Positions 46,268-51,342 of a DNA stretch of 64,000 nt are shown one piece after another. The stretch is taken from contig OX597820.1 of the NCBI GenBank assembly GCA_951406725.2, positions 82,894,001 to 82,958,000 on the forward strand, written 5' to 3'. How positions within the stretch are numbered: the stretch's first letter is position 1; every line of letters begins with the position of its first letter. The notes under the pieces were generated by a model. That model did not search any database. It had not been told where the DNA came from and saw nothing but the letters and a program-made list of their open reading frames with translations. The stretch comes from Octopus vulgaris. Lineage: Eukaryota. A program made the position numbers and the translations under genes.

Positions 46268-46480
46268 GTGATTATTGTGCGCTGACGACGGGTAAATACT
46301 AAGAAACCCGGGCCCGTGCATATCACGTCAGGTCGACGATGGGAAGGATGGGTTCCCTTTGCAAATACTGATGGGGCACAGAAAGTATGTCAATAGTCAG
46401 CTGGAGAAGATGTTCTCCTGGGGCTACAAGCTACAGCAGCATCAACCCTTAGTGGTTAGCCACATTTGAGTGGCAAATAT
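46268..46480 (+). ncRNA. Hammerhead-headed structured element, copy 1
   Basis: TGTGCG-CTGACGA-...-GAAA-CCCGGG-CC-CGTGCA (U16.1C in this copy), followed by several hairpins. Aligns end to end with 51132-51342. Confidence 0.75.
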
Positions 46481-46857
46481 ACTTCACATTGTCATGCAGC
46501 TACTGTCTATACCTTGTTCAGAGATTAATTATTGCTTGTGTTCTGGTGTTTGCTGAATTTTCCACATAGTGGTTTATCCCTAAATATACACATGTATTGA
46601 ATTCTTTTCTGATTTTTGAGATTTTTTATATATGCTAGGCTACTGGTTTTAAATTGATATTAATTAAATTAATATTCAATTTATCTCCCTCATTATATAA
46701 ATTATATATACATACATACATATACATATACATATATATATATATATATATATATATATATATATATATATATATATATATATATAAAGTAAAGTAAAGT
46801 ACCACAACCAAAACGCAAAATTCATCAAGCAAACATCAACAGGAATATAAATCATAA

Positions 46858-49185
46858 CCAGAAAAAAATCCATTTTTTTACGTCAGGACAACAAACACCG
46901 GAGAAAGAAAAAATCCAAGAGGAAACATACCCCGAACAACTGAACGTATAGATCCTAAAATAATTAATTTATCAAAAAGAGATCTTGACAATGATGAAAT
47001 CCAACTTCTGTCAAAAGGACTGAAATTCACACCTACACCAACAGCCAACCACCAAGAATTAAAGGAGGATATCCAAAAATTCTGTCGAAAATTACGACTT
47101 GTAGAATTCTTCGCTAACAAAAGTAATGAGATTGATGAATCCCTAGTAAGGAATAAATCAAATTTCACCCCACCAAAAGGAAGAAATAACTACCTTGACC
47201 AATACATTGATATCCTGTCTAAATTTCCCCTTAGACGCAATACCAATGTTAGGCCAAACATTAGCAAATCAGAGATGTCTGCATGTAAACGTATACAAAA
47301 CGATCAAACAATAATAATTAAACAAGCAGATAAAGGTGGTGCAATTGTTATTATGGATACCGAATACTATAAGGATTTGGTTGAAGACCAACTGAAGGAT
47401 ACAACCTTCTATTGTGAAATACCCGCAAATATAGACCACCACATCATGAAAAAGATCAACAACCTGATTTCAACACACCACAACTCACTTACGGATAATG
47501 AAAAAGACTACATCACCAATTTTGAACCAAAACCCAGCAACTTCTACGGCTTACCAAAAATACACAAATCAAAAAACATTCAACAGGCAGTAAAAGAACA
47601 AGAAAGTGAGTACATAAAATTATTACATCCAAAAGACCTAAAACTTAGACCTATTATAGCTGGTCCAGCATGCCCTACACACCGTCTAAGCAATTTTATT
47701 GACATTGTTTTGAAACCACTATGTACTTACATACCAAGTTTCATCAGGGATGACATCGACTTCCTGTCCCATCTTCCCAAAACAACAGAAACAAATTCAG
47801 TTTTGCTAAGTTTTGATGTGGTAAGCCTCTACACCAATATTCCACACGATTTAGGAATAAAGGCGATTAAATACTGGTTAGAAAAACATAGAGAAGTGAT
47901 TCCCAGCAGATTCACAGTGCCATTTATATTAGACACAGTCAAACTTATTCTAGAAAATAACACATTCTTCTTCAATGGAAAGAATTACATCCAAATTAGA
48001 GGCACGGCGATGGGAACGAGGTTTGCTCCCGTTTACGCCAACTCTGTAATGGGATACTTAGAAGAACAACTCTACCAAGAGGTGGAGGTAAACTATGGCA
48101 CTGGATTTAGAAAGTATATTGAAAAGGCATGGAAGAGATACCTAGACGACTGTTTCATAATCTGGACAGAATCTCTAAATACTCTGGAAGAGTTCAATAT
48201 CCTCCTGAACAACCTACACCCATCTTTCAAATTTACAAAGGAGATGAGTAGTACCAAATTACCATTCCTGGATATAATGGTAATTAAAAAAGACACCACC
48301 ATCACCACAGATATATACTATAAACACACAGACACACATCAATACCTAAATTTTAAGTCGTGCCATCCACCACATACAAAACGTAACATCCCATACTGCC
48401 TAGCCAGAAGAATTTGTACTATTGTAGAAGATGCAAATATCAGGAACAAACGCCTAATAGAACTAAGAGAATTTTTGCTCAAACAAAAATACCCATCTCT
48501 ACTTATAGAAAATGGCATACAGCGGGCTATAAAAATACCTATACAACAACTTAGGACAACCCAAGGAAGAGGAAAACAAGAACAAGTCATACCATTCATA
48601 GTGACACACAACCCATGTCACCAGAATATCTTCAACATTGCCAAAGCAAACCTTCCAATCATTGCCCAAAGTAATGAATTAAAAGACATAATCAAGGATC
48701 GAGCTATGGTGCTTAGTAAAAGACAGCCTAAAAACTTGAAAACATTACTAACAAAGGCAAAATTTGACCTCAGCAACAAAGACCAAACATTCACGGTATC
48801 TAAATGCAATGATAGCCGATGTGGCACATGCCAATTCATACATACCGGTCAATATATAAACACAAAAACCGGAAAAATATTCACAAACGCGAATATGAAC
48901 TGCAAAAGCAGAAATTTAATTTACTGCATCAAATGCCCAAATTGTGAAGAAATATATGTAGGTCAGACGGGAAACGCACTATTAGAACGCTCACGTGTAC
49001 ACCGGCAACAGATTAGAGACCCAGAGGTCCGTCAGATACCTTTGAGTAACCACCTAGCAACATGTGGTCGGAAAATATATATAATATTTCCATTCTACAA
49101 ATTACACAGCCCAAGTGAAATCGAGAGGAAAATCAGAGAAAAGAATTTTATTGATAAATTCGAACCCAAGCTAAATAAGCAATAA
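46858..49185 (+). CDS. PLE reverse transcriptase + GIY-YIG endonuclease (open frame; first ATG at 47275)
   Basis: No stops from 46858. Motifs IINLS, LSKGLKF, KQADKG, LRPII, SFDVVSLYTNIP, GTAMG, RYLDD, linker CNDSRCGTC, LIYCIKCPNCEEIYVGQT, and conserved H, H, E, N. Confidence 0.92.
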   Translation, partial: PEKNPFFYVRTTNTGERKNPRGNIPRTTERIDPKIINLSKRDLDNDEIQLLSKGLKFTPTPTANHQELKEDIQKFCRKLRLVEFFANKSNEIDESLVRNKSNFTPPKGRNNYLDQYIDILSKFPLRRNTNVRPNISKSEMSACKRIQNDQTIIIKQADKGGAIVIMDTEYYKDLVEDQLKDTTFYCEIPANIDHHIMKKINNLISTHHNSLTDNEKDYITNFEPKPSNFYGLPKIHKSKNIQQAVKEQESEYIKLLHPKDLKLRPIIAGPACPTHRLSNFIDIVLKPLCTYIPSFIRDDIDFLSHLPKTTETNSVLLSFDVVSLYTNIPHDLGIKAIKYWLEKHREVIPSRFTVPFILDTVKLILENNTFFFNGKNYIQIRGTAMGTRFAPVYANSVMGYLEEQLYQEVEVNYGTGFRKYIEKAWKRYLDDCFIIWTESLNTLEEFNILLNNLHPSFKFTKEMSSTKLPFLDIMVIKKDTTITTDIYYKHTDTHQYLNFKSCHPPHTKRNIPYCLARRICTIVEDANIRNKRLIELREFLLKQKYPSLLIENGIQRAIKIPIQQLRTTQGRGKQEQVIPFIVTHNPCHQNIFNIAKANLPIIAQSNELKDIIKDRAMVLSKRQPKNLKTLLTKAKFDLSNKDQTFTVSKCNDSRCGTCQFIHTGQYINTKTGKIFTNANMNCKSRNLIYCIKCPNCEEIYVGQTGNALLERSRVHRQQIRDPEVRQIPLSNHLATCGRKIYIIFPFYKLHSPSEIERKIREKNFIDKFEPKLNKQ

Positions 49186-49502
49186 TAATAATACTTAGAG
49201 GTATTACTTCCACTGCTACGACCATGACCACTAACAACAACAACAATACTAAAGGTGATCAAGACGAAGATAGCAGGAAAATTATCTTATTTAGGGTTAA
49301 AAGTTCTATTGCCACCACCATCACCACTAGCAACAATAATTAAGGTGCTGACAATGATGATGATGACAATTGAAATATAAAAATATAAAAATCTCTGACA
49401 AAGGATATTTACAACATTTCTAAAAATAACCCAACAATTGCTGCTTCGGCCAGGGTCAAGATACAGGACTCTTCACCTGTCCAACAAAGCGTGATGCCTA
49501 AA

Positions 49503-49645
49503 CCAATCAGCTCAACCAACCAATCAGCTTAAGTAATTGAGTGATACTACACACTGATTGGTCAGAATACAGTTTGCAAAACCTAGCACTCTGGAGCCTA
49601 CCCAGCTGTATTTATAGCACAGAATCACTCATCTTGCTACAGTCA
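49503..49645 (+). promoter_or_regulatory. Putative Pol II promoter in PLE pseudo-LTR
   Basis: CCAATCAG at 49503 and 49520, inverted ATTGG at 49557, TATTTATA at 49609, and Inr-like CAGTC with A at 49641, 32 nt from the TATA. Confidence 0.55.
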
Positions 49646-49679: not shown

Positions 49680-49724
49680 TGAACCCGAAGATTGCAGAAT
49701 TCAATGCATGAAAGTACTAGTTCA
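49680..49724 (+). ncRNA. Type I hammerhead in PLE pseudo-LTR, U4C variant
   Basis: TGAAC-CCGAAGA-T-TGCA GAATTCAA TGCA-T-GAAA-GTAC-TA-GTTCA. 5-bp helix I; palindromic AGTACT helix III. Confidence 0.8.
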
Positions 49725-50306
49725 ATCAGAATGAATATTTAACATTCTACTATTTCATTTTATTTTATTCAATTATAATATATTATCTTATAATATATCA
49801 TTATAAGATTGTAAATAAAACGTGAAAATCAGACAAGGTTGGAATTCTTTTTTATTAATATATATATATATATATATATATATATATATATATATATATA
49901 TGTACAAAATGGGACAAGAACGCAAAACATCCAGACAGTTAGGTGATACAAGAAAGGGAGAACAAAACATCCAGACAGATGTTTCAAAGAAAACAAGGAC
50001 GGGTCATTCGGAGTTTTCCTCCTCAGTCGAGTTCCAGATTAACTTTGCAATTTCGGCTGGTTATACTCGAGATTACTCCTATATGGCCAGCTCCAAGGAA
50101 AAACTAAGCTAAAAGCATTAGATTTCTTGGAAGAAAGTAGCGAAGGTATACGAAAGCAAGGAAGAGTGGAATGAACAGAGTAATCGTGAAAGGGATGATA
50201 GAAAGAATAAACGAATAGAGTCGTACAAGATTTAAATAGATATATACTTACATATAAGAGACCAAAGTGTACGTACGCCGGTAGGGTATGGTAAGTAAAT
50301 AGAGAG

Positions 50307-50569
50307 GTAATTAATAAATTATTATTTATTAAATAAAAATTTGACAAACATCCCTTAGAACTGTTTCAATTTCAATTTCAGGAAAGTAATACAATTGAAA
50401 ATTTAATTTTATTAACAATTAAAACTTTTACTTGAAAGTCGAATCTCTTCAGAAGAGATTCGACTTTCAAATGTTGTTTTTAATTTTATTCATTAATTTT
50501 TTGAAGGTCTGCAATTGAAACAGCTGTAAGGGATGTTTGTCAATTTTTAATTAATAATTTATTAATTAC
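50307..50569. repeat. Fold-back of a hammerhead-bearing tail
   Basis: Perfect 19-bp arms around 50451. Outer arms 50307-50371 and 50513-50569. GAAA-CAGCTG-TA at 50517-50528. Confidence 0.85.
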
Positions 50570-51131
50570 TTACCCATCTTCTTATAATAAATAAATATAT
50601 ATAAACCATAGTCTTTATAGTTACCTTGCAGCTTAGTATTAACATGTAATGATCAACATCATTTGTATAGGTAACTAACAATTACTCTCCTAATATATAT
50701 ATATATATATATATATATTCATGTATGTAAGTGTCTATATGTGTGCATGTACGTAAGAGTGTATATGCAATTATTTCTTTGCAAGTGCATTCATGTGTGT
50801 GTGGGTGTTTGTGTGTGTGTGTGCGTGTGTTTCTATGTATATATTGTGGGATTGTTCTCTATGTGACCGGCACATTTAGTTGACAATTATGTTATTTTAT
50901 ATATATATTTATTTATTTATTTATTATTATTATATTATATTATACATATATACATAAATATATACATATATATATATATATATGTATCTATGTATATATA
51001 TATATGTATGTATATATATATATATATATATATATATATATATATATATATATATATACATATATATATACATATATATATATATATATATATATATATA
51101 TATATATACATATATATATAATGTCGACAAC

Positions 51132-51342
51132 TATGATTGTCGCACGCCGATGATAGGTCAATACCTTGAAACTCGAGTCCGTGTGTATCATAAGTTGAAG
51201 ACGGGAAGGATGACTTCCCTTCACAAATACTGATAGGGCACAGAAACTGTGTCTATAGCCAGCTGGAGGAGGTATCTTCCTGGGGCTACAAACTACAGTA
51301 GCATCCACCCTTAGGGGTTAGCCATATTCAAATGGCAAATAT
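51132..51342 (+). ncRNA. Hammerhead-headed structured element, copy 2
   Basis: TATGAT-TGT-CGCACG-CCGATGA-T-AGGT CAAT ACCT-T-GAAA-CTCGAG-TC-CGTGTG-T-ATCATA plus downstream hairpins. Flanked by (TA)n on both sides. Confidence 0.8.

Follow-up and report, generated by a model that had tools for sequence, protein, structure and literature searches.

Truncated copies of a hammerhead retrozyme family in the genome of Octopus vulgaris, likely inserted by a borrowed Penelope-type enzyme

The non-LTR (non-long terminal repeat) retrozymes of metazoans are hammerhead-bearing repeats of 150-450 bp, with units of 350-390 bp in mussels and of 330 and 350 bp in the axolotl (PMC7229834, Cervera and de la Pena 2020). 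The stretch of Octopus vulgaris DNA analyzed here (hereafter the window: 64,000 nucleotides of contig OX597820.1, assembly GCA_951406725.2, forward-strand positions 82,894,001 to 82,958,000) contains two copies of an element that, by its sequence, is a new family of this known kind. The two copies are very probably truncated, likely inactive members of a hammerhead retrozyme family with a non-coding unit of 352-357 nt, whose insertion at (AT)n microsatellites is likely the work of a reverse transcriptase-endonuclease borrowed from a Penelope-type element. The family combines one type I hammerhead per unit with a tandem monomer in the 150-450-nt range, GC content below 50%, absence of coding capacity and a stable fold. 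The type I hammerhead, non-coding character, low GC content (<50%), tandem arrangement, branched fold and short helix III with a palindromic loop are all shared with the retrozymes described in the covered sections of PMC7229834, and the U-U mismatch at the base of helix II resembles that of the axolotl hammerhead HHR_Amex2 from the same source. Circles have been demonstrated for the metazoan retrozymes, whereas the octopus family is known from sequence alone and its arrays are short (up to about five units). The same authors propose Penelope elements as a candidate mobiliser, without a two-ended insertion scar in the sections covered. The vertebrate retrozymes (Li, Clavereau, Pollet 2026, bioRxiv 10.64898/2026.07.22.740005) likewise occur as monomer, dimer and multimer copies and co-occur with Penelope-like elements; there, the link to Penelope consists of this co-occurrence and terminal-repeat homology, whereas in the octopus it consists of the insertion footprint, with no homology found.

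The features of the two copies are the following (window coordinates; q positions are numbered from the base after the predicted hammerhead cut):

46217..46539, plus strand: copy 1, a single 5'-truncated arm of the older subfamily B1, from q260 to about q225, with the long 3' end
46268..46326, plus strand: hammerhead of copy 1, type I with an extended helix I, triplet GCC at 46312-46314, two private changes in helix II
46434..46505, plus strand: conserved multibranch domain of copy 1, a closing helix and two hairpins, containing the short 3' end (about 46490)
50929..51122, no strand: (TA)n-rich array, the target of copy 2
51123..51342, plus strand: copy 2, a single 5'-truncated arm of subfamily A1, from q296 to about q163-165, ending close to the short 3' end and followed by (AT)n
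51133..51191, plus strand: hammerhead of copy 2, type I with a U4C core, a U-U mismatch at the base of helix II, a palindromic tetraloop and GUC at 51177-51179

The initial annotation of this locus described two diverged copies whose differences preserve pairing, and this description is borne out by an alignment with 82% column identity and by the presence in the sequence of every pair that it named. The unit is larger than the about 210 nt that it assigned to them: both copies are 5'-truncated, and the true monomer is 352-357 nt long. A type I hammerhead is present in each copy, with the proposed GUC at position 51179 located as the triplet 51177-51179 in copy 2, but the hammerhead of copy 1 is damaged, with GCC in place of GUC. 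This GCC, in place of the family GUC, is a private change of copy 1 against its subfamily; given also the two private changes in helix II, the hammerhead of copy 1 is predicted to be inactive. The U4C core and the U-U mismatch of copy 2 are, by contrast with such private changes, common to subfamily A1. Each window copy contains a single hammerhead, neither has the predicted promoter motif discussed below, and copy 2 additionally lacks the upstream strand of the rod in the predicted fold. Copy 1 differs from the B1 majority sequence at 18 of 322 columns and copy 2 from the A1 majority at 3 of 224; folded alone, copy 1 is no better than its shuffles (z -0.96) and copy 2 is better (z -2.90). Both are likely to be ordinary dead, inactive copies. 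A third retrozyme copy was not found in the 64-kb window, and an Rfam search of the whole window at the gathering score gave no match.

The family to which these copies belong is large. Genome searches for the two copies gave 2,130 and 3,070 candidates (40 scored for each), and one 24-nt motif has 1,242 + 1,250 = 2,492 exact genome matches, against 0 for the control. The tandem copies that the initial annotation had suggested looking for do exist, as short head-to-tail arrays of up to 5.1 units, and their monomers measure 352 nt for the copy 2 type and 357 nt for the copy 1 type, with 353 nt found as well; the GC content of the monomers is 0.43-0.47. The copies fall into at least six subfamilies, to which a young subfamily Y and an older subfamily D are added. 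Subfamily Y has 226 + 246 = 472 exact motif matches, a mean divergence of 0.9%, a canonical hammerhead core and a G-C pair at the base of helix II, and subfamily D is about 68% identical to B. The early assessment that the element has no coding capacity holds for dimers of six subfamily majority sequences, in which the longest ATG frame is 80 amino acids (aa). A second, unrelated hammerhead-like motif adjoins a retrozyme copy on the minus strand of locus L189 (234-572).

The core of the hammerhead is conserved across 115 extracted motifs. At E up to 5, the Rfam model RF00163 matches only the hammerhead of the young subfamily Y (five units of locus L220; 32.2 bits against a cut-off of 34), and the window copies are unmatched. 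In the predicted fold of the monomer, the hammerhead caps a long rod that is followed by several hairpins and the multibranch domain; circular folds of the majority sequences have z scores of -3.8 to -6.8 in all four cases tested (about 11 nt at the rotation point are missing). Covariation was assessed by predicting the fold on one subfamily and scoring it on another against a permutation null, a design that limits circularity. When the A1 fold is scored on B1, 8 of the 95 pairs are double changes, where the null predicts 1.6 (p 0.0008), and 11 are broken, where it predicts 20.5; double changes are significant in four of six subfamily pairings in a first set and in five of six in a further set (p at most 0.016), and RNAalifold on 14 natural copies yields 72 pairs, 22 of them with two-sided change. 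The helices singled out in the initial annotation fare differently in these 14 copies. Compensation is clear for the distal helix I pair (A-U in 7, G-C in 7) and for the GGAGRA hairpin (G-C in 11, A-U in 3), and the internal bulge of helix I appears as an internal loop in all subfamilies. The terminal hairpin pair is U-A in 6 and C-G in 4 copies but broken in the other 4. The CCCGGG/CTCGAG exchange in helix III keeps the palindrome; the helix nevertheless has only two pairs and a palindromic tetraloop, not a third pair. The GGGAA/TTCCC segment may take either of two folds: the local hairpin, which covaries as well, or, in the full monomer, a long-range pairing with upstream sequence that is missing from copy 2.

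A plain satellite, or a DNA-level repeat whose structure arose by chance, would be consistent with the failure of copy 1 alone to fold better than shuffles and with the compensatory changes being mostly transitions. Some of the covariation results likewise weigh against a selected fold: 11 of the 28 changed pairs are broken in the A1 to B1 comparison, double changes are not significant for Y to A1, A1 to A2 and B1 to B2, and the counts, which come from a permutation test rather than R-scape, represent few independent events. The satellite explanation is, nevertheless, refuted by the cross-subfamily covariation together with the conserved core in the 115 motifs, and the dispersed copies, 5' truncation and fixed 3' ends also speak against it, so that it is hardly credible. 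The reading of the element as a selected, structured, retrozyme-like RNA, first made from the window copies, is thus supported by the covariation and the tandem copies, and also by the lack of a shared upstream body of the kind that the alternative considered at the time, an unstructured 3' untranslated region (UTR) of a long interspersed nuclear element (LINE), would have.

The insertion scar connects this RNA with Penelope. It was analyzed in 68 insertions selected solely by a central motif, comprising 103 arms of at least 55 nt; duplicate loci of one insertion were left out (L095 and L114 here, 14 in the best-hit sets, 8 overlapping loci and L203 in subfamily Y), as were subfamily Y arms with less than 90% identity. 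The 3' ends fall at q163-177 in 52 arms, at q212-231 in 46 and elsewhere in 5, so that 98 of the 103 lie at two fixed sites 43 nt apart. Among the 35 two-armed back-to-back insertions, 30 combine a short and a long end, one is short+short, none is long+long and four are atypical (p 1.4e-8). The short+long combination recurs in 26 of 30 such insertions in the best-hit sets and in 21 of 25 in subfamily Y (the other four atypical), and the ends of subfamily D are at the same two sites. The target is likewise specific: (AT)3 abuts 68 of the 79 subfamily Y arms, compared with a background of 6.8%. The multibranch domain is likely the region bound by the copying enzyme. The 5' truncations of subfamily Y (L197-L256) form a cluster within the hairpin domain, where 18 of 57 arms begin at q101-150 (p 0.0002, with the bin picked post hoc); this cluster is weaker with other bins and absent from the older set.

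The same footprint is seen in the Penelope-like element located between the two window copies:

46703..46786, no strand: (TA)n microsatellite, 5' flank of the Penelope-like element
46792..49863, plus strand: Penelope-like element of a young family with a 4271-bp unit, 5'-truncated, without the start and most of the 430-aa first open reading frame (ORF), short 3' end in (AT)n
46858..49185, plus strand: 775-aa stop-to-stop frame, reverse transcriptase (RT; PF00078, E 2.4e-06) and C-terminal GIY-YIG (PF01541, E 2.7e-05)
49680..49724, plus strand: minimal type I hammerhead of the Penelope-like element, with a U4C core, a U-U mismatch at the helix II base and a palindromic helix III; predicted cut after 49719

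The RT with a C-terminal GIY-YIG domain, the terminal hammerhead and the tail identify this neighbor as a 5'-truncated copy of an autonomous Penelope-like element. It had been considered intact but begins at position 1344 of the 4271-bp unit. Its family is very young, the window element being 99.1-99.7% identical to another copy. Counted from their own hammerhead, the copies of this family end at q143 (13 copies), at q183-189 (9) or elsewhere (1), in (AT)n, and all three resolved inverted pairs are short+long. Two internal start sites of Penelope define a tail of 30-40 bp (PMC11167929), and Penelope insertions are described as lying in (TA)n and as having an inverted arm, with the tail on one side (PMC8557442). 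The octopus retrozymes thus resemble Penelope-like elements (Frangieh et al. 2024, PMC11167929; Craig et al. 2021, PMC8557442) in the two 3' ends, which lie downstream of the hammerhead and about 40 nt from each other, the inverted 5'-truncated arm, the tail at one end and the AT-rich or (TA)n targets, but differ from them in being non-coding and in having an extended rather than a minimal hammerhead. Non-autonomous elements of Chlamys also form head-to-tail multicopy insertions (PMC4209133, Cervera and de la Pena 2014). Given the scar shared with the neighboring family and this published signature, the retrozyme is very probably copied by a Penelope-type enzyme. Some observations point the other way: the retrozyme shows no sequence similarity to the neighboring Penelope family or to 30 GIY-YIG loci in 7 clusters (an incomplete sample of 6,136 candidates), and only 52 of the 103 arms in the older set still adjoin (AT)3.

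The juxtaposition of the three elements in the window had been suspected to be due to chance, and the divergences from the subfamily majorities together with the identity of the Penelope-like element to another copy indeed indicate separate insertions of different ages. That the two retrozyme copies might serve as terminal repeats for the Penelope-like element is ruled out by these different ages and by the lack of similarity to that element's own repeat. At the level of the family, the retrozyme units could be orphan pseudo-LTRs of an unsampled autonomous Penelope-like element rather than an independent RNA replicon: most truncated copies of Penelope are pieces of its terminal repeats and carry this scar too, and frog retrozymes resemble Penelope terminal repeats (bioRxiv 10.64898/2026.07.22.740005). 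Yet the monomers are arranged head to tail in up to 5.1 units with no coding sequence in between, the Penelope protein matches at three loci are detached from the retrozyme copy, and the 57 single-armed insertions share no substantial upstream flank except for an inserted LINE, all of which makes this explanation improbable.

Several further features of the Penelope-like elements deserve mention. The 430-aa ORF of the neighboring family, which has no Pfam match at E up to 1, overlaps the 775-aa stop-to-stop frame that follows in the -1 frame, and the overlap (window 46870-46882; L151) contains a run of seven T that is identical in 13 of 13 matches, some of them overlapping loci of one insertion. 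This arrangement likely reflects a programmed -1 frameshift, predicted from the sequence; in some Penelope types, ORF1 is separated by a frameshift (PMC8557442). The hammerhead of this element (49680-49724) and that of subfamily A1 (51147-51171) share the U4C core and the U-U mismatch and no other sequence similarity. A second abundant Penelope-like family that ends in (AT)n (L266-L291) has a 781-aa open frame, and a simple pattern search found no hammerhead in it; this family is a candidate source of the partner enzyme. At locus L012 (990-1725), a Penelope 3' fragment and a retrozyme arm lie back to back in one (TA)n tract, so that target use is shared; a template switch was considered for this locus and rejected, as the two are separate insertions parted by (TA)n. 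The window also contains, at 50340-50543, a 204-nt element resembling a miniature inverted-repeat transposable element, with terminal inverted repeats of 17-18 nt, a long internal palindrome and a fold of -77.5 kcal/mol.

The upstream flank mentioned above, shared by two unrelated retrozyme copies, is a 5.3-kb LINE with Exo_endo_phos (apurinic/apyrimidinic endonuclease, APE), RVT_1 and zf-RVT domains. In both full copies, which lie in two different subfamilies, it is inserted with a 20-bp duplication at q294-313. In a sample of the best 30 matches to the LINE 3' end, picked without the flank (two of them being the discovery loci), 28 end at the homologous retrozyme site and two elsewhere: 18 exactly at q294/295, one with a small deletion, one followed by the duplication and a second LINE, 7 at the homologous site of further diverged subfamilies and one at a more distant relative. 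The LINE thereby flags additional diverged retrozyme subfamilies (L330-L338), some with UUGAYAA-type cores, along with the distant relative (L336). The physical junction in 28 of 30 loci might suggest that the retrozyme is a short interspersed nuclear element (SINE) or a 3' UTR moved by a LINE, for example this APE-RT LINE. This possibility is largely refuted by the nature of the junction, at which the LINE has inserted into the monomer and duplicated 20 bp of its target; moreover, retrozyme copies terminate at two 3' sites, include inverted arms and are flanked by (AT)n, compared with the single 3' end of the LINE, and the unit contains neither A/B boxes of RNA polymerase III nor, in agreement with the first description, a tRNA head (ARAGORN detects a tRNA in none of five loci). 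A LINE-driven origin is accordingly very improbable. APE-RT LINEs of the Tx1 group target transposons, small nuclear RNA (snRNA) genes, satellites or microsatellites (Kojima 2015, PMC4494074), much as the octopus LINE targets the retrozyme; unlike the targets covered in that source, the octopus target belongs to a hammerhead retrozyme family, whose diverged subfamilies are all entered at one position, and the LINE itself was compared by domains only.

The LINE site lies 56-58 nt downstream of a promoter-like motif of the retrozyme at q238-241. An snRNA-type promoter is expected to have its proximal element about 57-60 nt before the start. In octopus snRNA genes, ATCAG is found at -57 to -61 in 20 of 20 U1 loci and in 17 of 20 U2 loci. 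Two of the three U2 exceptions (L344 and L351, base 1500) have, directly before +1, a LINE-like 3' end that resembles that of the retrozyme-targeting LINE. With a matrix built from five unrelated promoter classes, the retrozyme site ranks first on the sense strand in all four subfamilies, and the subfamily A motif agrees with one U1 class at 11 of 11 bases. As the core is short and the matrix was anchored on it, an snRNA-type promoter is only a prediction. The match amounts to the 5-nt core used for the anchoring, scoring stays low (-2.0 to 4.2), and there is no enrichment of 5' ends at q286-305 (5 rearranged or duplicate loci and the LINE-interrupted L252 and L100 left out), all of which counts against the promoter. 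Copy 2 begins at q296, the predicted transcription start, which may be due to chance given this lack of enrichment. In the newt, satellite 2 is reported to be a hammerhead repeat with an internal snRNA-type promoter demonstrated experimentally (Coats et al. 1994, cited in PMC2220036), whereas the octopus promoter is predicted from the position of the motif and the LINE target site.

The nature of the template is the least certain part of the proposed scheme. Of the 103 arms, 41 cross the cut site and 14 are longer than a monomer, so the template is not a linear cut monomer; the 5' ends show no excess at the cut (2 seen versus 1.9 expected, 5 rearranged or duplicate loci left out). In the two-armed insertions of subfamily Y, 23 of 23 haplotype markers are common to both arms, and among the variant sites of this subfamily, 64 are present in all units of an insertion, 4 in a subset and 111 in one unit. 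The 5.1-unit array L220 has private variants common to its units, no longer parent with its variant is present in the assembly, and the two other exact carriers of one of these variants are other haplotypes. Such shared variants, which amount to a single haplotype in each insertion, fit repeated reading of one circle, and a circular intermediate would fit the structure of the copies in general. The sequencing run X14 (contigs only; RNA by guess) contains one unbranched 383-nt contig (353 + 30) identical to L222, of the length expected from a 353-nt unit closed on itself; it is only a weak hint of a circle because a tandem DNA array would yield the same contig.

Other observations tell against a cleaved monomer circle. 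In L226, a unit-specific variant is present in register in both arms, implying that at least some templates are multimeric, and three more subset sites occur in L209 and L218; homogeneous arrays could also be the product of expansion in place once a copy had inserted; and among the predicted retrozymes of frogs, 8 of 9 failed to cleave (bioRxiv 10.64898/2026.07.22.740005). The same family and the same Penelope-type enzyme might instead use an uncleaved linear multimer transcript, with the hammerhead cutting little and circles being rare or a side product. The L226 variant would be explained in this way, as would the wide spread of subfamily A1 despite its U4C core and U-U mismatch, U4C being known to lower hammerhead activity considerably in vitro (PMC3088659), and hammerhead mutations did not impair Penelope insertion in vitro (PMC11167929). 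However, a linear transcript does not sit well with the lack of enrichment of 5' ends at the predicted start, with the five L220 units that have common private variants and no longer parent, or with the canonical core of the youngest subfamily, and we consider it an unlikely, albeit serious, alternative to the circle.

Taken together, the life cycle of the retrozyme could be as follows. The internal snRNA-type promoter (about q238) would probably drive transcription from about q294-296, just before the hammerhead, in tandem copies. Successive hammerheads, probably helped as dimers by the palindromic loop, would then, with somewhat less assurance, excise a monomer that is closed into a circle. 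A protein that is very probably of the Penelope type would nick both strands of an (AT)n tract, and reverse transcription would begin within a single RNA, at q173 and q216, and produce one or two arms, perhaps over several laps; we slightly favor the monomer circle as the usual template. The APE-RT LINE would take the promoter start as its own target. In a more speculative, tentative version, these elements form a three-level chain of parasites, in which a Penelope enzyme acting as a dimer primes both cut (AT)n strands at two fixed positions of a single RNA ring, the hammerhead circle driven by an snRNA promoter, and rolls round it, and the LINE finds the promoter start by position (through bound transcription factors) rather than by sequence, tracking successive subfamilies.

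In the literature searched, which was mostly open-access, there is no report of this two-ended footprint in retrozymes, of a retrozyme-targeting LINE or of such a family in octopus or other cephalopods; Repbase and Dfam were outside the search, so that the family may already be catalogued. Both the enzyme that moves animal retrozymes and the circle as its template are put forward as proposals in PMC7229834 and bioRxiv 10.64898/2026.07.22.740005. The octopus family offers exact points at which these proposals could be tested, namely the start sites q173 and q216, the conserved domain around both, a young subfamily with a canonical core and a young Penelope family that leaves this footprint too. 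In addition, it supplies a candidate promoter and a LINE that marks this promoter.

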